A stretch of 63,987 bases of DNA, filler included, from Dirinaria sp. TL-2023a (taxonomy: Eukaryota), in assembly GCA_051941275.1 (NCBI GenBank). It is 8 parts of 8 records of this genome, joined end to end, with 100 filler letters (N's around TTAATTAATTAA, not from the genome) between each part and the next. Parts side by side here need not be neighbours in the genome. Positions count along the whole stretch, not along the records: positions 48,663 to 56,631 come from JAVEBF010001249.1; 7 more parts are not named here. One strand, given 5' to 3'. The position numbers and the translations under genes are program-made. Positions 45,475 to 60,075 of this stretch are shown here, one piece after another. Position 1 is the stretch's first letter. Each line of letters opens with the position of its first letter. The notes beneath the pieces are model-generated. The model saw only the letters and a program-made list of their open reading frames with translations, did no database searches and was not told the origin of the DNA.

Positions 45475-46240
<766 letters not shown>

Positions 46241-47286
46241 AGAAGTTCCCTGAAAGTCTTGTGCCGGCAAAGATGTTTATCAAGTATTACTGCGTCGGTC
46301 TCCTCATCCGCCTCCGATAGTCTTTCCGTTGTCTCCCCTTTTCCACCTGTCCGAAGTACTTCCGCATTCCCTCCACATCTGGCGCGCGCTCGTGATCGTG
46401 CCCCCGATCTGATGCATACTTCGATGTGCATTCGGCGGTACAGCTCTATGCCATCTTGGTCGTCCTGCTTTTGTGTTGCTCATGTGGGAATGATAGGTGT
46501 TCATGCAGTGATAGATTTTAGTCCCTGAAAGCAATTCACGTTGAACGTTCTAATAGTCTACAACGCAAGTCACGGCCACTGCGTGATCCTCATCAAGCCC
46601 GCCTTTTCTTCAACTAAGTCCTGGAGCTTCTCAGCTTTTGGGTATATGATAGTGCCCTCAGAACGCAATATCCCTGCCATTTATAGCCGACTCCTGGTCC
46701 CACTGGTGTTCGACAAATTGCCCCCACATTTGTGATTTGCCAGCTATCGTATCAGTGTATCAATGTGGTAGCCTGTTTCAACCTGTACATCACATGCTGG
46801 CCCAATGATATCCATGGCTGTAGTTCGATTCCCTCAGGTAATTTATGACACTTTGGTCGTTCTGCAACGTCATAGTTACCTGCGCCTCAATCCAGCAACC
46901 GAACTGCGTACTCGTGCATATAATCACCAGTATTGTGGCATACTTGACTTTCAACTCTAGAGCAGAACATCGTATCAGAGATACCTCGTAGATAACGCAT
47001 TTAAACCCGAGACATCCACAGACAATAGGTACTTGGCCGTATCTCAAACATGTGGACAAAGGCCAAGTTTGCTCCTCCACCAAATCATGAGTCACGCTTT
47101 GTGAATAGGAAGTACAACACCTCTCTTCTTTCTATTCAAATTACATAAGAGGTCAAATTCATCTTCGTCAAGTATTCCCTCAAGTCTCTCTCAATCAATT
47201 CGTCCGTCGCTTGAACTCAACGTAGTTTGGGCAAACAAAACTTGAGTAGCAACCATCTGCACATAAAGAAACTCAAACCAGCAACT

Positions 47287-48562
47287 ATGCCTGCTACACG
47301 CGTAACTCTGGCTTCTAACGCAAACCAATCGATCAAAGCACCTTTGCTAGTACCATCGTCCGCTTCTCCGGATCCTGCATCACCGTCTTCCTATCGTGCC
47401 CTTGTCATCAAGACAGCGCTATCAAAACTGCGCTTAAAGAAGCCAAGCCGCGTCTTCGTTGCTGGCGGCAAGGAACTATTACATGCTGAAGATTGGAAAA
47501 TTGCGCTGAAGGACGACACAATCCTCCTCGTCTCAGCGGGCGAGGACTACGTGGGTGCGCGCCACGAAGATGCAGTGCGGAATGGTGTCGATAATATCAA
47601 TCCTGATTGTCGAATTGAGAATTTAGCAAGCAAAGCCTTTGTCGACGACCTTTCGCTCCGGCAATTGGAATCTGTAGCGCGAACTCTGCCAGGCATCATC
47701 CATGCGTGCGCTCAACCCGATCTGCATCCTGGCACCAAGTTTCCCATTGGTGCTGTACTTGTCTCACGGGGCTGGATACACCCTCCCCTGATCGGCTCTG
47801 ATATTGGCTGTGGAATGGCTTGGTACAAGACCACACTTACCAGAGCACAGGTCGAAGGGGACAAAGGTCGAAAGATAGCTGAAAAGCTACGGGGCTTGGA
47901 AGGTGCCTGGAGGAGGCAAAGTGATAGAGAAGTCTGGTTGACCAATGACAACAGGGAATGCTGTAAAGCTGGAGACGAATGGGATGCATCACTGGGCACG
48001 ATCGGCGCGGGCAATCATTTCGCAGAGGTGCAAGTCGTCGAAGAATCCTCGCCGGACGCTCAGCTCGGAGACACCAAACTGCAGCTTCACGAAGGGGATG
48101 TAGTTCTATTAGTGCACTCCGGCTCGAGAGGTTTTGGAGGTGATATTCTCCGCCGCTACACCGCGAATGGACACATCAGCCTCAAAGCAGACGAGCCAGC
48201 AGCCCAGCGCTATCTCGAAGAGCACGATCGCGCCTGCGACTGGGCATCCGGCAACCGCGATCTAATCGCCCTCCGATTCCTCGCTTGTCTAGAACCTGGC
48301 AACCCAGAATGGGACCTCGGCACCAACCTTACCCCCGTCGGTCAAGGAGAAACCTCACATCAATCGACCTTGCAAGCCAGATCTCAAATCTCGGAGCGAA
48401 AAGTTGTAGATATATGGCACAACAACGTCTCGATCACGCCTTGGCCACCATCAGCGCCTTCTTCTTCTTCCTCTTCTCCCACCCGATCCACCACCCCACC
48501 TCCCCAAAAACCCGAGCAAAAAGAACAAGAAAAAGTCTTCATCCACCGCAAAGGCGCCGCGC
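47287..48562 (+). CDS. RtcB-family RNA ligase (release-factor-H-coupled/RtcB2-like) with an N-terminal extension; truncated by contig end
   Basis: PDLHPG.KFPIG, PLIGSDIGCGM, SLGTIGAGNHFAEVQ, LLVHSGSRG, WHNN, IHRKGAA; no intron in the visible part. Confidence 0.88.
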
Positions 48563-48662: not shown

Positions 48663-48990
48663 CGGCATTAGCGTGCCTCGCTTATCTTCCAGCCTCGCCA
48701 AGCCATCTGTTTACCAACCTCGCCAACCTTCAACAACCTCCCAACCTCTTCCCACATCTCCAGGCTTCCCAGAATGCAAAGGACCATGGATCCACTCCAG
48801 CCATCGCGAATTCTATCATGGGATAGAATTCTGTTTCCTTACTTTTCTCATCTCCCAGTCCATCCCAGAACTTACATCCCACTAGCACCGTGCACGCATC
48901 CGCTCCTTGTACTTCTGCCCGTGCATTACTACCCACCTTGACTCGCAATTTTACCTCCTGTCAAGGAGATTACACTCTAACTCTCCAGAT

Positions 48991-49755
48991 ATGCGCTCAG
49001 CGCTGCCTTCCGCTCTGCTTGCTCTTACTCTCCCTTTACTCTCCAGCTGTGCTCCTTTACAACCGCAAGCCCCACGGCCTGTTGTCAAACGCGCCTCATA
49101 CTCAGTCGTCGCGGTCGACGGCAGCTCAGGCTCCGCGGCTACCTCAGACTCTGGCCAACCGGCCGCCGCGACCACCTTGGTACAAACACATGAGACGACC
49201 AAGACAGTAACGGCTCCAGCGAGCACGAAGCCTCCCAAAACGGAGGTGATTCTTTCGACAGTGGTGGTGCAAAATCCGCAGGTCACGAAAACGGTAGACG
49301 TCACGGAGCCGGGGAAGACTACAGTTATCACTGTGACAAAAGAGATACCGGATTCTCCATCCCCATCGGCCGAGTCCTACACGATCGTCAATCCTGCCGG
49401 GCCCTCTACCACAGCTTCATCGCCCCAAGTATCAGGCACCCCCAACTGTACAACATCGAAACCTCCGCCACCCCCTTCGATATCGTGCTCAAGCACAAAT
49501 ATCTCAACATCCACCTCTACATCGACAGCTACGGAAGCTGCAACCCTCTTCCCGCCAGCGCCAGTGGTGCCCGTTCCAATACCTGCTCTCCCAAGCACCT
49601 ACAGCGCAAGTCCTACAGCTGTGCCTCCACAGCCATACGATAACGGGCAATGGCATACCAACTACCGTGCATGGAATAGCACAGTGACCGCTGCTGGAAC
49701 AGGGACCGCTGCAGTAACGGGCACCGCTACATCCGTTTCATGGGGAGCATCATAA
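48991..49755 (+). CDS. Secreted Ser/Thr/Pro-rich (mucin-like) protein
   Basis: Signal peptide MRSALPSALLALTLPLL, KR site, YSVVAVDG, T/S/P-rich body, YDNGQWHTNY near the C-terminus. Confidence 0.8.
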   Translation: MRSALPSALLALTLPLLSSCAPLQPQAPRPVVKRASYSVVAVDGSSGSAATSDSGQPAAATTLVQTHETTKTVTAPASTKPPKTEVILSTVVVQNPQVTKTVDVTEPGKTTVITVTKEIPDSPSPSAESYTIVNPAGPSTTASSPQVSGTPNCTTSKPPPPPSISCSSTNISTSTSTSTATEAATLFPPAPVVPVPIPALPSTYSASPTAVPPQPYDNGQWHTNYRAWNSTVTAAGTGTAAVTGTATSVSWGAS

Positions 49756-51651
49756 GAGGGGCTTGCGACCAATTTCTTTCAAAGGAAGATGGACAGCAAT
49801 AGGGTTTGCGTCGGGGTTTAAACAGGTGGCGGATCACGACGATATTATGTCTTCGACTGTTAATATAGAAATGTAGTTTTCAGGATGACGAAGGTTCAGG
49901 TATGCATAGCGTCGGGAAAACCTTCCCAGGGACGGGACGTGGTTGAATTTCCAAAGCAAGGTGCTCCGGAGGGATATGGGCTTCAATTAAGATTTCACGC
50001 TTCCAACGAAGGGGATGCGAAGATCGGAATAGAATTGGGGAAATAATCTAATGCATAGAGTTACTTACATTAATCAATTCAACCAAGTTAATTTACCTAC
50101 CGCCCCCGCTTGACACTGCTCTTGATGCATACATGAGATTTCCAGTATCCTTCTTGGAATAAACTTCATCCATCTCCTTTCCCTCCCCAACATCTTCAAA
50201 AAGTAAAAAAAATGAAGCAACACTAAAAAAAGAATTCAAACATTCCGGCTTCTCGGAACTTGTACCCAAAAACCCAATATAAACATGCTAAGATAACTTG
50301 CAAACCAAAACCTCCAAACCCCTTTTAAAACTAAGCCGGCCTCCAATTCGCTCCGCGCAGCGAATCACATCCTCATTTCCATCCAATCAATACAGATATT
50401 CAAATCAAAATTAGAATGCACGAAATACGAACATATATATCTGGCTTTAAAGATGTGATTCATCATGCTTGTTGCTTCATAACCCATGATAGGAACGCGT
50501 GCAGGAGTAATTGTTTCTTCTTTTTTCATCATCTAACTGCCTTCTTGGACCCATGATGCCGAGATATTCCCTACGCTTTCTGTGTTCTGTCTAATGGTAA
50601 TGTTGAAAGTCCCACGGATCTGAGGTTAAAAGAGAAGTCGAGTCGTTTTTTTTGAACTGGCTTGATCTGGCGCTTCCCCGCACTGCCTTGATGGAGATGC
50701 CTGAGGGAAAGTAAGGTACCTTAAGGTGCCTGTATAAAGCGATTAGGTGTAAATGAGGACTGCAGAGATGGAAGGAACCCTAGCCACTATACTGGATCGA
50801 GGTTTGGATAGCTCGAGTGTGGGATCGAGAGTCTGCCCTAACCCTTACCCCCAATTTGCATTCTCTAAGGATGAGGTACTTTCTAGTATCTTAAGGTAAG
50901 GTAGGGTAGATCAGCGTGCCGTGTGGATGGCATGTCGTGTTGTCATAACCCTAGACAGGTATGTAGCAGACTTCTCTGAGATTTATGAACCAAGGAACGT
51001 ATGCAGGGCTGATTTTGCAAAATATATGTTAATGGCGTTCTGGTGAGGGTTTGGTATAAAATACATGGGCAGATTAGAGAATATGTCAACTGTATTGGAG
51101 TGTATGGAGAAGGGACGGTATCCATGAGCGGATCTGGATCTCGAATTTAGGGAGGCAGGGCGAATGTGGTTTCCTGGGTTTCCTTTCTCGCCTACACTCC
51201 CTTGTGACCTTTGCCCTTTGCTATACGGCCTTTATCACGGAAGGTCGACCTTTGCTTGAAGGTGCGACAGGGAATAAGGGGAGACGAAAAGATGGAGCAA
51301 AGGAGGAGTGTGTGTGTGTGGAATTTATCCAAGATCTGGGGAATCTCAATGTGTCCCTGCCCTAGCCAGGTAGTAGTTGCGTGGACCAGCAATGATGATT
51401 CTTAGGTGATTTTAGAAAAAAAATTGTGTAATGGAATGACGATAAACAATGAAGAGCCATTGGCAAATGGCCACATTGTAGAAGGTTGCATTGTATTTTG
51501 TATGAAAAAGGGGAAAAAAATCAATCTACTGCACTACCTTCAAAGGCAGATCAGAGAATAAATATGAATATTCAGCACGATATCCAACAATTCGTTTTAC
51601 TCAATTCCACGAGTATTTTCATACTTACTACACAAGAACGATGAACGCACC

Positions 51652-51972
51652 TTAGAGATGTATTCTCTCCACAGATCCCACCACTCTCGTCGTAAAGTTC
51701 TGCTGCAGTTTCGCTCCTGTTTCAACGCTCGTTTCGTTCTCTTTGTCGTCAATCCCCAACGATGTACGCTCTTCAATGCAGCTTTTCACGGCGTCGTGAT
51801 ACTTATTCCCCAAGGTTACTTTCATATTGTTCAGTTACTCCGTCTCTAGCAGTCTCTCTCGGATGATCTTCAACTCATCCAATTCTGCTTCTTCTGGATT
51901 TAGAAACTTGGTAATGTTCTCAATCTTGCCCCATACTACTATCTCAAGGAAAACAGTGCCGAGAGAGTAGAT
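51652..51972 (-). pseudogene. Relic of a kinase-like C-lobe of the type found in fungal HeLo-domain/pseudokinase proteins
   Basis: Manual translation: IYSLGTVFLEIVVWGKIE...RERLLETE*LNNMKVTLGNKYHDAVKSCI...KLQQNFTTRVVGSVERIHL*. In-frame TAA at 51835-51837; upstream part of the domain not seen. Confidence 0.65.
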
Positions 51973-52481
51973 GGGTACGATGCGGAGGGCATGCTTAATC
52001 GGGCTTAGCGCCATACGTAGGGCTTACCTATCTCCGGCCTCCTCTAAATCCTTAAGTGTTTGGTCCATTGTATCGCACCCAGGCCACAATGGACCGGTAA
52101 TTAGCATCTTCATTCTCAATACAGTTTTTCACCCACATCATAGTCATTTTTTTTATAGAGATGATGAAGATGGTGACACAGCTAGCTAGCAAATAGGCTA
52201 TTCAATTTGCAATGAAAGCTTGTATCGAATGCCAGAGATTGTGCAATGGAGAAGGGCTAAGAAAAGGGGCTCGGCTATGTGCCGTAGTATGATTGCTTAA
52301 GACCTCTCAAAGAATGAATTAGCAGCAGTAAGAGGTGGATGTACCATTTGATTCTACAAAAACAGTAAGAATTTGTCCGAAGACCCAGCGAAATCAAAGC
52401 TTAGCGACCACTCACTGCGCTCGTACCTTTCGAGTATCGCATGAAATAGCACTTGTGCATCTCGTCTGGTTTCATATCCCA

Positions 52482-53087
52482 ATGAAGCTCTTGGAGATTG
52501 AGCGGAAGTTCAACTGGAACCCGGCCAGCCTCAAAATTCTGATGTCGAACGGAGGCCAGCCCCCTTTTTCTTCCCGTCCTATGATCCAGTCGAAAACATT
52601 CCGGGACACCTACTACGATCTAGATGACAAACTCTCCAGCAAAGGCCTCTGGGTCCGAAAGCGTTTACTCTACGGCCCCAACAGAAAAGTCGAAAACGAT
52701 ACTTGGGAAGCCAAAAAATCCATGCCAGGAAGTTCTTTCGCGCGCTCAACCTATGATGAAACTCAAGACCCCAGTCGGATTCTGCAGATGATCAAGAACT
52801 ACGTCCCAGATTGTGCTGGAACGGATGAGTCTTTTGGATTAGAGAAAATGTGCCAATTTGAAACATACCGGCGGTCGTTTCTGGCAGACGGGAAGTTTAC
52901 AGTCGTACTCGATGAGACGGATTTTGGGCACTCGGCTGGCGAAGTCGAATTACTCGCTGAGGACGAAAAGCAGGCTCACGCGGATATTGATGTCTTCTTG
53001 GCTCGCTATGCGTGGCTTTTCGATTGCTCCAGGCCGAAGGGGAAGCTCACAGCTTATTTCGAAAAGTATCCTCGTAATAGTGTGTGA
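52482..53087 (+). CDS. CYTH / triphosphate tunnel metalloenzyme (thiamine-triphosphatase-like), 201 aa
   Basis: ExExKF signature (LEIERKF), FRDTYYD, LWVRKR, WEAK, F.T.RRSF, VVLDETDFGHSAGEVEL, KGKLTAYF; intronless. Confidence 0.88.
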   Translation: MKLLEIERKFNWNPASLKILMSNGGQPPFSSRPMIQSKTFRDTYYDLDDKLSSKGLWVRKRLLYGPNRKVENDTWEAKKSMPGSSFARSTYDETQDPSRILQMIKNYVPDCAGTDESFGLEKMCQFETYRRSFLADGKFTVVLDETDFGHSAGEVELLAEDEKQAHADIDVFLARYAWLFDCSRPKGKLTAYFEKYPRNSV

Positions 53088-53239
53088 ACTATGCCACCAA
53101 GCTATCATACACAAGTCTATCAGGACAAAAGCTGTAACATAAGAGGTAATGACCGAAACGGTCCAGCCACATCCAGTTCTCGGTCATCAAGATATCAAGA
53201 TGAGCAATGTAGTCCGAAATCTTGTTCTGCCGACCATCT

Positions 53240-54283
53240 TCACCAGTCCAGATCACCCTGAGAAGCCTCTCCCACGCAATCCGACTTCGACCATTCGTAT
53301 ATCCCCCCTCGCTCCTCAAACCCATCTTCATCCCAGAAGACATCTTTCAATGCCTCAGCGACTCCAACCTCGAGGATACTTTTTGTCGGCTTTGCAACAC
53401 CCTTGTTCAGGAAACGCAAGTACTCGTCAAGCAGCAAGTAAGAGCTCGCCATCACTTTGTTACTCTCTGGGACGAAACTTTCCTGGTGCTTATGCTTATC
53501 GCAAAAAAGATCGAACTCATGATCCTCAATAACAAAAGGGCTCGCATCACGAAGTGTCCGCTCGGATCCATTCTCCTCTGGCACGACGAGCACTTGGAAG
53601 CACTTCCAGCGAAAAGGTTGTATCTTTTCGATGTTGGCGTTCATGTCTTCCTCGAAATTGTACCGATTCACCACAGTATTGATCTTCAGCTTGATACCGT
53701 GTTCTTTGCACAATCGACTCAGGTTCGTGACCGTCTTGAGATGGTTACCGGCACCTCGTCCAATCTTAATGTTTGTCGCTTCGTCGAAGGAGTCGCAGGA
53801 AATGGCCATGATGTCCAGGAACTCGCCGTACTTGTCGAGCCATTTCTGCGTGACTTTACTACCGTTTGTGACGAGGGAGACAGATTCCAACTTGAGGGTT
53901 TCCTTGCAATATCTCACCAGTTGGCCAAGGAACTCGGCATTCATGAATGGTTCTCCGCCAGCGAAGTTCATCTTTTTCATCCCAGCATCTTTGAGAAGAG
54001 CCATGGCTTTCTTCGCATTAAGCAGAGTTTCAACATGGGAAGTCTTGGCTGTATGAAAGCAGAACCCTGGAGTAAAATTAGTGATGGGTCTCCAACAGAC
54101 CGAACGTGGAACATGAAATCCCATACCACAGGTATAGTTGCATTGCCTAGTCAAGTGATAGTTGACGGAGACGGGGATTTTCTTTGTGGCCGCTTTGGAC
54201 CTCACATGGTAATACAATTCGAAAATCAAACCCGTGGTTCCCAAAAGAAGGGCAATTACAACCAAGAGAGTATGGCTGAGCAT
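53240..54283 (-). CDS. RSAD2: Viperin / RSAD2-like radical SAM enzyme (putative ddhNTP synthase), 327 aa after splicing
   Basis: After removing intron 54067-54126: [20 protein letters not shown] (CxxxCxxC), [73 protein letters not shown].YEWS; hydrophobic N-terminus. Confidence 0.95.
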   Translation of the reverse strand: [347 protein letters not shown]

Positions 54284-54833
54284 CTCCAAATCGAAGTTTG
54301 TAAAAATGGATGTAGTGATAGAGAAGGCCAGATTTCGTGCTAGGAGACAGTCTGTACAGGGAGACCGACTGTTGGAAATAGGCCTGATTTGATGACCTCT
54401 AAGGAAAGAAATTCTATCTACCGGGATAACCCAGATACATAAAGGCATCTGAGGTTTGCCTATATGGTTGCCATACTAACAAGCATGATGAAAGAAATCA
54501 AAGGATTCTGAGAAAGAACGTCATGCTGGAAGGATGACTGGAGCGTCAAGACATCCTTCCAAATGGTGCTATTCCGGGAGGAGGAGTTGACCGGAACATC
54601 AAATCGCTCAAACAAAGCGATATGAGCAAACGTCTGATCATCTGCCCCAAAACGCGGATTGCATCGGCTAGCTGCACACCGCTGCCTGCTAGTACCATCA
54701 TTCAGACTGAGATGGATCGGTGCACTTAAATAAAAGTCCAAGGTACAGAAGACCACATTGGTGCTCTGAATTCCACGAGACCACGGAAGAAAGGTAAACG
54801 CTTGACTACCAGTGCTTAAAGTGTGCTACTGAA
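54284..54833. promoter_or_regulatory. Putative bidirectional promoter between viperin and the kinase
   Basis: 550 bp separate two divergent ATGs; inferred from geometry only. Confidence 0.45.
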
Positions 54834-55757
54834 ATGGAGATGACTCAAGAAGGATCTGACAAGAATGAGGCAACCAAGATCGTTTGCGTTATCGGTGAGA
54901 TCTTTGCGGCTCTACTAGTCCCATTGCCGGAAGCATGACTAACCAACCCATCCAGGAGGTCCAGGAGTAGGCAAAGGAACGCAATGCGCAAGACTGGCTA
55001 CAGATCTCGAGCTGGTACACATATCTGTCGGCGATCTCCTAAGGAAAGAGGCTTTGCGGCCAGTTCTCGGTCAAGATCTCCAAATCAAGTCCATCATGAG
55101 CAATGCATCCCTTGTTCCTTACGAACATGTACAGAAAACCCTCAGCCTCGGCCTCGTGGATCACATACAGAATGGGCGGGATAACTTTCTTATCGATGGC
55201 TTCCCCCGCAGCAAGGAGCAGACTCAATTCTTTGATGGAAAGGGAGGTGCCTTTCCAACTCAAGCGTTGAAGGGTGGGATACTGACTCTTCTCACAGAAC
55301 TGGAAGGCAGATGCGGTTCTTCACTTTCATTGCTCTGAAGCCGTTATGCTCGCGCGCATGTTGAAGAGAGCTGAAACGTCTGGGAGAGTTGACGATACCG
55401 CTGAAGTCTTCCGCAAGAGATACGCTGCACATATGGAAGAGATCTCAAGCGTCACGGAGGCATTCCCAGGGAAGGTTATTGACGTACGAGTTAGTCTTTA
55501 GTACTACGGAAAAGTCACTTACTATGATTAGGTGGATTGCGAAAGGGCTCTCGACGACATCTATGAGGAGCTCAAAGGCCAAGTTAAGGTAAGTAGCTGC
55601 TGGATGCCATCACATCCTTTATTAACAAAATTTCAAGGAGATCTTTGGAATCGTGCAGGAACCAAAGGAGGAGTTTGATGAAATTGGCGATGCAACCTCG
55701 CTTTCAGAGTCGGGCCCAAAGAGCGATCTGAAAGCTCATCCATCCTCAGCATCGTAG
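54834..55757 (+). CDS. UMP-CMP/adenylate kinase family nucleoside monophosphate kinase, 5 exons
   Basis: Manual splice: KIVCVIG|GPGVGKGTQC (intron 54895-54955), HISVGDLLR, FLIDGFPRS.EQ, VLHFHCSE.VML.RMLKRAETSGRVDD, VIDVDCERALDDIYEEL (introns 55484-55531 and 55589-55637). Intron 2 borders are ambiguous. Confidence 0.85.
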
Positions 55758-56346
55758 TGCTCAAACTCGGAGCCGAGACGTCAGCTGGCGAGCTTGCCTT
55801 GCAACTGATCATGAATTATGAAAACTCGTCCTCAAAGACATTCTTTCTGCATAGTGACCTCCCTACGGCACACCTTGTGCTACACTGTTCGCTGGTACTT
55901 TAATAGAGCACCCAATACCGATCAGTTTGAGTCGCATGCGAGGTGGCCGGCGTAAGCAGTACGGAATAAGGTAAGGTACGGAGTACGGAGGTTGCTATCA
56001 ACAGTCCTGGCTAGCGTCAGGTATGCCAAGAGTACCTGTCCAGGTGACTACGGGTAGGCTTTGCAGAGAACCAGCTCCACTCTGGGTATCAAGTTAGCGG
56101 GCATCGGGTGATAAGTTTAGGTAGTGCCCCAGGCGACTTTCAGTTGGGCGGTAAGGTACTAGCTGCATTGGCTGCGCTAGCTTCCGACTAGTGGTAGCGT
56201 CAAATCTCCTGTACTCATACCATCAATCTAACCGGCGGAAAATTGACCTACCTTACTTTACTAAGGTAATTTTCTACAGCTCTGCCAGTCCGCGTCTCTA
56301 TGCACCTCTGCGATAGCCACTCTCAATCACCTACAGAGCCATCATC

Positions 56347-56575
56347 ATGAAGCTCTCCCCACCCCTCGAATCTCTAGCTCGACTATTCAAAATCCCCTTC
56401 CCCTCAATCCATCGCCGCCCAGCATCTCAAATCCAGCAGCAGGCAGGCACCCCCATCATCCCAAAATCTTTATTCAGCAGCACCCCTCACCGCCCCAAAA
56501 AACGCGGCCTAGACGGCGTAAATTCAGGTCCACCTGGCACGACCAAAGTCCCCGTGAAATTCGACAAAAGAATAA
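56347..56575 (+). CDS. First exon of a probable mitochondrial protein (possibly ribosomal mL40-like), truncated
   Basis: Basic, presequence-like N-terminus (FSSTPHR) ending DKRI|gtaagt just before the gap; family assignment tentative. Confidence 0.4.
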
Positions 56576-56631
56576 GTAAGTCCCATCTACATCGCACCAC
56601 CCCCCCCTTCCCAATCCCCTCCCAACTCTAC

Positions 56632-56731
56632 NNNNNNNNNNNNNNNNNNNNNNNNNNNNNNNNNNNNNNNNNNNNTTAATTAATTAANNNNNNNNNNNNN
56701 NNNNNNNNNNNNNNNNNNNNNNNNNNNNNNN
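56632..56731. other. Artificial contig spacer
   Basis: N44-TTAATTAATTAA-N44. Confidence 0.97.
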
Positions 56732-57455
56732 GGAAGGCACGATGAGGTGGTACGGGAGGGTGGAGGGCGTGGGGTATTGCGTGCGGGCGAGGGAGAGAAG
56801 GGGGAGGAATTCGAGCATAGAACCTGGTTTGAGAGCGTGAGTTTGAGATGAGATATGTGCGTTCGGGGAGAGGGAGTTGGGATTAAAATACCGGGCCAGC
56901 CATGCAGACAGAGCAGTGGGATTGCGTCGGGCTTGGAAGAGAATAGGGCGACGAAGTGTATGCGGAAAGTATCTCCCTTGTCCTCGATGGAGGTCGTGAA
57001 ATGGTGGAAGGAATTCATGTGCGCTTCGCACGCACGCCTGAGACATAGCGATGTCAAATGAATTAGCGGAGTCATAGGAATCTCGTAATACGATTGGAAA
57101 AAGCTTCAATGGCTACGAATATCTTCGACTGATCACTTCTCCCTTTTTTTTTCTGCAAGTATACTACACCATCGCAAAAAGAAAGAAGACGAAAAAAACT
57201 TTTCCACGATATTGAAAGCCCTACCACCTCAACTTACCAATCAAAGCTATCAAGCCAATACTCCTTCGCATTCGCCAACCACGATGTAGTAATCCCATAG
57301 TGGCCATCTTCCTGCGAGCTTTCATACGAGGGCGCCGCGACTTTGCTATACCTTAGCAATGTGCGGAACTCCTGGATATCGCTCTCAGGGATGGAGATCG
57401 TGAAAAGGTCGATGGAGTGAGCTCCTTGCGGAAGAGTACCGAATGACTCAGACAT
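56732..57455 (-). CDS. Microsomal-type epoxide hydrolase, 5' part (truncated by contig edge)
   Basis: EHN N-terminus (FTISIP...YGITTSWL..AKEYW..FDW|R..E..MNSF.HF), IHFVALFS..PDAIPLLCLHGWPGS..EF, YHLIVPS. Confidence 0.9.
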
Positions 57456-58169: not shown

Positions 58170-60075
58170 CTACACATTCTTCTCCGACTCCTGGCTCAAT
58201 TCTGCCAAACGCTTCTGCGTGTAGCTCTGCTGCCGCGATCCCATTCCCGGCGCGACCGAACTCTGCCTCCTGCCCATCATGCTCTGCCGCCGGTTGTCAC
58301 TCATATACGCCGCTGAAGGCACGAAAGAAACCCGTCGGCCGTCACCACCCTGCCGGGCATCCTGGAGTTGCTGTGCAAACGGCGAGCGCTTACGAAGAAC
58401 GGGCCCTTGCCAGTAGATGACGTAGACGGCAATGACCAGCACGAAGGCGATGCAGAAGAGGATCGTGGACGCGTCCTGGAGGTGTTTCTTGCCGCCGATG
58501 TTGGTGAAGAAGGGGGTTGCGGGGATCGTAAGAACACCGGCGAGAAAGTCGCGAGACCAGCCGTTGCCACCGGTTGCTGAGGCTGAGTACGGACCGTAGG
58601 CGCAGATCATGTAGTCGATGGTAGCCATGTAGATGGAGTAGTTGGCGATGCCGATGATGGCAGCGAAAATCATGGAGCCGATCCACTGCAAGACGGATTA
58701 GATACGAATGCTGGTACTTAAAGTGAAAGAACTCACGTGGATCGGTGGGCCACCGCTGGTCCATGCAAAACCTATAAGACCGATGGGCAGACAAGGAGCG
58801 GTCCACAGGAGCCACCAGAGCCGCGACTCGTATTGCGACCTCTCATCATCTGGATGCTGCTCGCGATCTCTTTTGTTGCGTTGAATGGCCGGGATGAACA
58901 GAATCCATGCAATGATATAGCCAACGCCGATAGAGCAGAAGGATAGACCCTGGGCGACGGTGCCAAAGTTCCACTGCTCGTAGACCAGCGTGAAGGATTG
59001 GATGAACATGAAGACCAAGGCATCGGAGAAACCGGACAGGAGGGACAATACCAAAACGATGGGTTCGGTCAGGAACATTTTGAAGGGCCGGATCCAGGTG
59101 ATGAGGATCTCTTTGACAGAGAAGCGCTCCTTGAAAGGCGTGATTTCGTTGGGTCCATAAACGTTGGGACTCTGTCCGCTCGCGCGTCGCTTCTTCGCAA
59201 TCTTATCTATCATGCAGGTCGTCCGCGTCTCGGGGACGAGGAGCAGATGAGCAAGCTGCACCGCTCCTCCAAAGATGAGCTGGATCCAGATGGACCATTG
59301 CCATGCAAGATAGCGTTCGCTGAATCCACCGACCACCGGGCCAAGTATGGAACCTCCCACGGACGAGAAAACCACGTAGGCGACAGCGTACTGCTGACTC
59401 TCCGCATCCCACATATCAGCAACCATGCCCAAGGTCACGGAACCTCCGGCTGAGGAGAGACCACCGAGAGCGCGGCCAACCATGATGGAGGCAAAGTTGG
59501 GGGCGAGAGCGACTGGGAGCTGCCAGATGTTGACCAGGAAAAGGGAGGCTTGAAGGACGGGTTTGCGGCCAAACTCTTCCGACCTAGATCATCTGTTAGT
59601 TTCTGGCTGTGAGGCAATACATAACGAAGTCGGCTTACCATGGAGCCCACAGCTCGCAACCAAAAGCGTAAGTGACGAGGAAGATCATGGCACCGCATCG
59701 TGCAGCTTGTGCGCTGACCCCAAACTGTTTGGAGATACCTTTGAGGCCGTTCGAGTAGAGACTGGTGTTGAAGTTCATGGACACTTGGACGAGGAAGATG
59801 ATCGTAAGGATAGTCCACTTCTTCCACGTGGGGAAGGAGTAGCCCAGCTCGTCGTAGCAGTCATCCTCCGTCAGCTCGATCCTATCGTCGTCAGGGTCGT
59901 TTGGAGCGACGGCCTTTTCATTGCCAGGAGACACATTCTCGTATTCTTGTGGAGCGGTAGCTTTGGTATTGGAAGAAGCATCGGAGCCATTGCCTGGTTC
60001 AGCTGGCTCACCTGGGCTTCCGGGTTGATGAACAAGCTGGCTGTCGTTGGTGGGAAAGTGGGCTACTTGAGCCAT
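58170..60075 (-). CDS. MFS transporter, DHA1 (polyamine/multidrug) family
   Basis: WKKWTIL, ELWAPW|SEE.GRKP, GRALGGLSSAGGSVTLGMVADMW, PETR, RPFKMFLTEPIV, IDYMICAYGPYSASA; two introns. Confidence 0.92.

Follow-up and report, generated by a model that had tools for sequence, protein, structure and literature searches.

Three genes, encoding a CYTH-domain protein that resembles animal thiamine triphosphatase (ThTPase, or THTPA), a viperin and a UMP/CMP-type kinase, lie side by side at positions 52482-55757 of a stretch of 63,987 nucleotides from Dirinaria sp. TL-2023a (assembly GCA_051941275.1; eight parts joined end to end, the whole of which is called the window here). This trio is a conserved unit of filamentous ascomycetes (Pezizomycotina), and it was found in three fungal classes, in changed gene order and between unrelated flanks. 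Viperins turn nucleoside triphosphates (NTPs) into chain-terminating 3′-deoxy-3′,4′-didehydro-NTPs (ddhNTPs), and these products are natural chain-terminating antivirals. The linkage of viperin to a kinase is known biology, and the conserved THTPA-like third gene is the new part. The function proposed for the trio, to which we give about an even chance, is that of a conserved nucleotide-analogue module for ddhUTP or ddhCTP, in which the CYTH protein would hydrolyse the viperin product.

The trio lies within the part of the window at 48,663-56,631 (JAVEBF010001249.1; positions count along the joined stretch). Its CYTH gene is intact, and the viperin and kinase genes have one and four introns, respectively. 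CYTH and viperin face each other, with 152 bp between their stops (53088-53239), and viperin and the kinase diverge, with 550 bp between their starts (54284-54833). This three-gene layout had been proposed with its coordinates in an initial annotation, and on re-reading both gaps proved exact.

Recurrence of the trio was followed in metagenome contigs scanned with viperin, which gave nine loci (L001-L009), one of them (L006, 1705 nucleotides) carrying viperin alone. In all eight loci with flanks, CYTH, viperin and the kinase lie within about 3.5 kb, and these loci belong to three lineages. Viperin of the first lineage (L001) is 82% identical to that of the window, and that of the second (L002-L005) is 72% identical to it and 92% identical to viperin of Lasallia pustulata; in both lineages the gene order is as in the window. 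Viperin of the third lineage (L007-L009) is 61% identical to that of the window, and its viperin and kinase are 88% and 74% identical, respectively, to those of the Pezizomycete Wilcoxina mikolae. Here the order is CYTH-kinase-viperin, so that the head-to-head core is kept and CYTH has moved to the kinase side. Viperin and the nucleoside monophosphate (NMP) kinase are thus adjacent and divergent in the window and in 8/8 loci, and the kinase is CMPK1-like, not CMPK2. Identity to the window drops in one order, L001 > L002 > L007, for all three genes: to the viperin values just given correspond 80%, 56% and 43% for CYTH and 74%, 56% and 43% for kinase exon 2. When the window from 44 to 64 kb was compared with L001, L002 and L007 by tblastx, matches fell inside the trio only, save one 21-residue hit, and no recognisable domain is common to the flanks of these three loci, which are domain-poor. 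Since the linkage is found again in other fungi, between different flanks, it is far beyond chance.

The same linkage is visible among annotated proteins, as in the following species.

Aspergillus pseudonomiae: CYTH KAB8261726, kinase KAB8261727 and viperin KAB8261728, consecutive accessions.
Psora crenata: CYTH Q9163_000265 and kinase Q9163_000267, viperin being outside the matches listed.
Wetmoreana brouardii: CYTH Q9181_008006 and viperin Q9181_008007 on a 3180-nucleotide contig, the kinase being outside the matches listed.
Loekoesia sp.: CYTH Q9225_006823 and viperin Q9225_006821, the kinase being outside the matches listed.
Wilcoxina mikolae: kinase KAF8244928 and viperin KAF8244927, consecutive, CYTH being outside the matches listed.
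Trichophaea hybrida: kinase KAF8535407 and viperin KAF8535406, consecutive, CYTH being outside the matches listed.
Usnea florida: kinase KAM0805610 and viperin KAM0805609, consecutive, CYTH being outside the matches listed.

At least two of the three genes also have near-consecutive accessions or locus tags in A. bombycis, A. nomiae, A. caelatus, A. pseudotamarii and A. pseudocaelatus. At least 23 of the 119 listed CYTH relatives (the window's own excluded) have a contig of identical length or adjacent locus tags in common with a listed viperin or kinase: 17 as direct CYTH-viperin pairs, four via cluster members and two as CYTH-kinase pairs. The viperin relatives were the best 120 of 1901, and these linkage counts are lower bounds. 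Two trios are present in Lasallia pustulata, one on a contig of 1944371 bases and the other on a contig of 1158130 bases, and its two CYTH and two kinase copies sit in separate branches of both trees (see below). In the second trio, P0383 (768 amino acids) is a merged gene model made of a kinase fragment, an unrelated middle and CYTH, which implies that kinase and CYTH share one strand and are separated by another gene or a spacer; P0068 was noted together with P0383 for the trios of this species. Among the matches listed, the named fungi nearest to the window in all three proteins are lichen-forming Lecanoromycetes, including Bacidia, Psora, Stereocaulon and Lambiella. Conserved synteny of viperin, CYTH and NMP kinase in other fungi, the main test proposed in the initial annotation, is therefore borne out by 8/8 metagenome loci and by Aspergillus.

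Because one class, the Lecanoromycetes, supplies most of the linked examples among the matches listed, it may be asked whether CYTH is adjacent merely through inherited synteny without functional coupling, the true unit being viperin and the kinase only. The linkage nevertheless outlasts the change of gene order in the Pezizomycete loci and in Aspergillus, the complete turnover of flanking genes and the duplication of the whole trio in Lasallia, and we consider this explanation very improbable.

The viperin gene is read from three segments.

54283-54127, minus strand: exon 1, from the ATG at 54283, encoding a hydrophobic N-terminal helix followed by the first two of the cysteines in CNYTCG.
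54126-54067, minus strand: intron of 60 nucleotides, GT..AG, in frame, inside the CxxxCxxC radical-SAM (S-adenosylmethionine) motif.
54066-53240, minus strand: exon 2, from FCFH to the terminal LDW, with the stop included at 53240.

Removal of the 60-nucleotide GT-AG intron restores the CxxxCxxC cluster motif, and the product is 327 amino acids long, with a hydrophobic helix at its N-terminus and ...RGGIY...LDW at its C-terminus. Exon 2 alone (274 of the 327 amino acids) was scanned against family models; it matches TIGR04278 with an E-value of 1.7e-101 and 339.7 bits, the cut-off being 450, and NF038283 with 214.8 bits, above the cut-off of 180. It also matches the solved viperin and viperin-like structures 6b4c and 7n7i with E-values of about 1e-110. 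The C-terminus, ...ERGGIYEW...GDLDW followed by the stop, contains the RxxxY clamp and the terminal Trp, as this motif is defined in the literature accessible to us. Exon 1 is matched in L001, L002 and L007 by tblastn. By analogy with assayed fungal relatives, the viperin of the window would make a ddhNTP from an NTP.

The kinase gene is on the plus strand, from an ATG at 54834 to a stop at 55757, and has five exons.

54834-54894, plus strand: exon 1, an N-terminus homologous to P0254 and P0255.
54956-55246, plus strand: exon 2, with the P-loop GGPGVGKGTQ and the NMP-binding part; it ends at 55242 when placed by homology, or at 55246 when the only GT donor is used.
55298-55483, plus strand: exon 3, with the LID region SGRVDD; its first base is 55298 when placed by homology, or 55311 with the GT donor at 55247.
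55532-55588, plus strand: exon 4.
55638-55757, plus strand: exon 5 with the stop codon, a poorly conserved C-terminal tail.

Exons 2 and 3 match TIGR01359, the UMP-CMP kinase family, and Pfam ADK. The TIGR01359 scores, 71.5 and 42.8 bits, come from single exons, the cut-off for the whole protein being 207.6. The elements GGPGVGKGTQ, SVGDLLR, FLIDGFPR and SGRVDD are all found; among solved structures, yeast uridylate kinase (1uky) matches best. At the donor site between exons 2 and 3, L002 has the canonical CAG|GTGAGT, whereas the window has AAG|GGAGGT and L001 has GAG|GAAAGT. P0254, an uninterrupted kinase homologue of 205 amino acids on a 1054-nucleotide contig that looks like a transcript, reads FFDKE|GWKAKDVLHF at this point, and by homology to it exon 2 is predicted to end at 55242 and exon 3 to start at 55298, which needs a non-GT donor. 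The only in-frame GT-AG solution uses the GT at 55247 and an AG ending at 55310 and makes the loop three residues shorter. A similar compensated junction is seen in L001 (8880-9020), where a GT four bases downstream and a later AG keep the frame, and intron 2 thus looks like a case of a shifted splice site conserved in two lineages, those of the window and L001. Apart from this junction, all the kinase exons are intact.

The ancestry of the kinase was examined in an unrooted tree built by quick search, with 103 rows: 99 of the 122 retrieved proteins (23 longer than 430 amino acids having been dropped) and the kinases of the window, L001, L002 and L007. The 13 viperin-linked kinases are on one side of a branch with a Shimodaira-Hasegawa-like approximate likelihood ratio test (SH-aLRT) value of 94-97, and yeast URA6 clusters with plant and animal CMP/UMP kinases, away from them; kinases fused to an HD phosphohydrolase form a third clade (SH-aLRT 99). 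Judged from its sequence relationships, the viperin-linked kinase is not URA6 but appears to be a dedicated CMPK1-type paralogue of a lineage separate from the URA6-type housekeeping kinase. The initial annotation had asked whether the kinase is distinct from URA6, and the position of yeast URA6 outside the viperin-linked clade in this unrooted tree agrees with such a distinction. As for the third clade, many CMPK1-like kinases of Pezizomycotina (about 290-417 amino acids; P0286-P0352) are fused to an HD or YfbR-like 5′-deoxynucleotidase domain, a further case of a kinase joined to a phosphohydrolase; the fusion gene of Emydomyces lies on a contig other than that of viperin.

The third gene is a single exon.

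52482-53087, plus strand: CYTH/triphosphate-tunnel gene of 201 amino acids, THTPA-like (Pfam PF01928).

Its product matches PF01928 with 30.8 bits against a cut-off of 23.2. In an alignment of 52 relatives, all 18 residues invariant in the family are present in the window protein, including E5, E7 and K9 (the ExExK motif), D42, Y44, R59, R61, K78, E93, R130, D144, E154 and E156, and W57 is conserved in at least 90% of the sequences. An AlphaFold2 model (pLDDT 95.6) matches TTM structures, with an eight-strand tunnel fold. The best match is animal ThTPase in both sequence (mouse and human; E-value 2e-6) and fold (mouse and human; template modelling score 0.75, about 25% identity), and plant tripolyphosphatases and class IV adenylate cyclases score below it. 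A search of the ESM Atlas with the protein returned generic CYTH clusters only. W57, Y44 and K78 align with Trp-53 and the Tyr-39/Lys-65 dyad of ThTPase; in the published accounts available to us, Trp-53 of the mouse enzyme stacks on the thiazole (five-membered) ring of the substrate, the pocket is closed by Met-195, which lies in the plug helix, and the role of the dyad is described as well. The KLxxY plug motif is retained in the window protein, and the position of Met-195 is Thr. In a tree of 116 rows, from which 11 rows outside 150-340 amino acids had been dropped, all 29 rows with known linkage fall among 99 rows. The view of CYTH as a cluster-specific family, raised in the initial annotation, was upheld to the extent that the members with known context are all viperin-linked.

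Since thiamine triphosphatases are the nearest relatives of solved structure, with plant tripolyphosphatases next, and many TTM enzymes favour tripolyphosphate according to the accessible part of the Bettendorff review, the CYTH protein might act on a different triphosphate, for example inorganic tripolyphosphate, thiamine triphosphate (ThTP) or an ordinary NTP, and thereby tune substrate supply or a stress signal beside the activity of viperin. Retention of the pocket for an organic group, with the conserved Trp57 and plug-helix residues, disfavours bare tripolyphosphate as a substrate; no specific ThTPase is known in fungi according to the same part of the review; and the tight co-inheritance with viperin is hard to square with a general housekeeping activity. 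Such a substrate is accordingly regarded as unlikely, at roughly one chance in five.

In the function proposed above, membrane-anchored viperin would convert UTP or CTP into the chain terminator ddhUTP, or perhaps ddhCTP, the divergent CMPK1-type kinase would feed pyrimidine nucleotides toward viperin, and the THTPA-like CYTH protein would hydrolyse the triphosphate of the ddh-nucleotide product. This hydrolysis could either limit self-poisoning of the fungus's own polymerases or be the first step to a free nucleoside. The choice of nucleotide is suggested by characterised fungal relatives, the viperins of Trichoderma and Aspergillus yielding mainly ddhUTP (Shomar et al., 2023; preprint, 10.1101/2023.09.13.557418), and the feeding role of the kinase is suggested by the vertebrate RSAD2-CMPK2 pair. 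The CYTH substrate is most likely a ddh-nucleotide, to judge from linkage and co-inheritance together with the retained stacking pocket.

Several points weigh against this proposal. First, loss of the terminal phosphate only would give a diphosphate, which can be recharged by nucleoside-diphosphate kinase, and detoxification would therefore need further steps or cleavage to the monophosphate. Second, to our knowledge, thiamine triphosphate hydrolysis is the sole activity tested for the closest solved CYTH relatives. Third, a separate CYTH clade of 17 rows (SH-aLRT 99), with members from Fusarium, Cytospora, Pyrenochaeta, Myriangium and several Aspergillus species, lies outside the rows with known linkage. 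Fourth, the junction of kinase exons 2 and 3 in the window is irregular and lacks a canonical GT at the donor position of its relatives. Finally, a control set comprised 80 viperin-like loci from 78 bacterial and archaeal genomes; many of these loci show only 27-36% identity to the query and could be something other than true viperins. A search of these genomes for Pfam CYTH yielded 57 matches, spread over 45 genomes, and not one of the 57 was within 6 kb of a viperin homologue, which implies that viperin works without CYTH elsewhere. Only four of these matches are on the record of a viperin homologue (one in G001, two in G012 and one in G066), all more than 400 kb away.

Some further observations were made on the prokaryotic set. 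CYTH genes had been considered inside seven loci (L015, L018, L022, L072, L082, L087 and L089) and were rejected, as the matches sit on other contigs. In two loci from bacterial bins (L015, 1415-6433; L018, 6782-11806), the viperin homologue is followed, with a 17-base overlap, by an open reading frame (ORF) of 1673 or 1675 amino acids, which has no Pfam match at an E-value of 0.001. For a viperin from an actinobacterial bin (Lapillicoccus sp.; L010, 6001-6777), identity to the fungal exon 2 is 55%, against no more than 27-43% for the 79 other loci, a wide margin that may be due to gene transfer or contamination.

The remaining genes of the window in the vicinity of the trio, and the region between viperin and the kinase, are as follows.

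45723-46205, plus strand: Arf GTPase, on the CYTH side of the trio.
47215-48561, plus strand: RtcB, on the CYTH side of the trio.
54284-54833, no strand: divergent promoter region common to viperin and the kinase, the head-to-head order being kept in every related locus.
56797-57105, minus strand: epoxide hydrolase (N-terminal domain), beyond the N pair at 56632-56731.
58701-59588, minus strand: major facilitator superfamily (MFS) transporter, 3 kb from the kinase and beyond the same N pair.

None of the four flanking genes, Arf GTPase, RtcB, epoxide hydrolase and MFS, was found beside the trio at L001, L002 or L007. Paired 44-base N runs occur about every 8.1 kb in the window (14 runs, 616 N in total), and the one at 56632-56731 splits the region of the epoxide hydrolase gene. 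Within the promoter region, a block of about 90 nucleotides (about 54623-54713) matches L001 in alignment and is a possible candidate for a regulatory element common to viperin and the kinase; a minus-strand ORF of 51 codons (54546-54701) overlaps this block.

As an alternative, the three genes could form a small biosynthetic cluster whose product, ddhU or ddhC, is secreted as a nucleoside antibiotic or antiviral. CYTH would then start dephosphorylation for export, and the product would be aimed at competitors or symbiont-associated microbes rather than at viruses within the fungal cell. The MFS gene near the kinase, the patchy spread and unrelated contexts, as with fungal secondary-metabolite clusters, and flanks of related loci that are poor in recognisable domains are compatible with this alternative. 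However, the transporter gene is not kept at L001, L002 and L007, no nucleotidase or second phosphatase accompanies the trio, and the hydrophobic N-terminal anchor and the C-terminal RxxxY...LDW of viperin resemble the intracellular animal enzyme. Taken together, these points leave a secreted product with a low probability, on a par with that of another triphosphate as the CYTH substrate.

A wider and more speculative idea may also be put forward. THTPA-like CYTH proteins could be the missing phosphohydrolases of the viperin pathway, their Trp pocket recognising the 3′,4′-didehydro-ribose of ddhUTP or ddhCTP, and animal THTPA might share or derive from this activity. With its aminopyrimidine, unsaturated five-membered ring and triphosphate, thiamine triphosphate may be said to have an outline like that of ddhCTP. 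Such an origin would fit the retention of fish and pig THTPA orthologues that are almost without ThTPase activity (Bettendorff review, accessible part). We rate this extension as doubtful, somewhat below either of the two alternatives for the CYTH role discussed above. A triphosphatase co-inherited with viperin and a kinase over hundreds of millions of years is a concrete candidate for the processing of viperin products. The trio also offers, for the first time, a genomic hint at what THTPA-like proteins do in fungi, and it suggests by extension an idea open to test on the thiamine triphosphatase family of animals, which is poorly understood.

Compared with known systems, the window CYTH protein retains the ExExK motif, the Tyr/Lys dyad, the Arg pair, the acidic residues, Trp-53 and the KLxxY plug helix of animal 25-kDa THTPA (PDB 5a64, 3bhd and 3tvl), and differs from it in being only about 25% identical and in having Thr at mouse Met-195; we know of no description of THTPA as viperin-linked. 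Arabidopsis TTM1/TTM2 (PDB 7z67), in which a uridine-kinase-like domain is fused to CYTH, also pair a P-loop kinase with CYTH, and TTM1 has been linked to pathogen resistance (Bettendorff review, accessible part). Unlike the trio, TTM1/TTM2 are fusion proteins with a different kinase family, pyrophosphatase activity and no radical-SAM partner, and their fold match to the window CYTH protein is weak (rank 39).

Prokaryotic viperins (pVip) share the radical-SAM chemistry and have kinases in a minority of loci; they differ from the trio in the absence of nearby CYTH genes from the 78 sampled genomes (0/57 matches within 6 kb). Kinases adjoin 12% of bacterial viperins, and fungal viperins are linked to CMPK1-type kinases of separate origin (Shomar et al., 2023), a pair like that of the window in being of CMPK1 rather than CMPK2 type. 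No conserved third gene encoding a separate CYTH protein is described in the accessible text of that preprint, whereas the window trio has one. A literature search gave no description of the trio or of a conserved CYTH member, although the supplements of Shomar et al. (kinase neighbours, fusion domains) lay outside it and may bear on novelty. The initial annotation had held that no fungal cluster of this kind was described; this stands for the trio, and it has to be withdrawn for the viperin-kinase linkage, already published in the accessible text of Shomar et al. (2023). Likewise, its interpretation as a nucleotide-analogue cluster gains from the recurrent three-gene unit, the non-URA6 kinase and the viperin-linked CYTH, and loses the viperin-kinase linkage as a new element.

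The vertebrate RSAD2-CMPK2 pair is likewise a head-to-head arrangement of viperin and a pyrimidine NMP kinase sharing a promoter region, and its kinase is thought to supply substrate. The fungal trio differs from this pair in having no interferon system, in the CMPK1-like nature of its kinase and in CYTH as its third gene.

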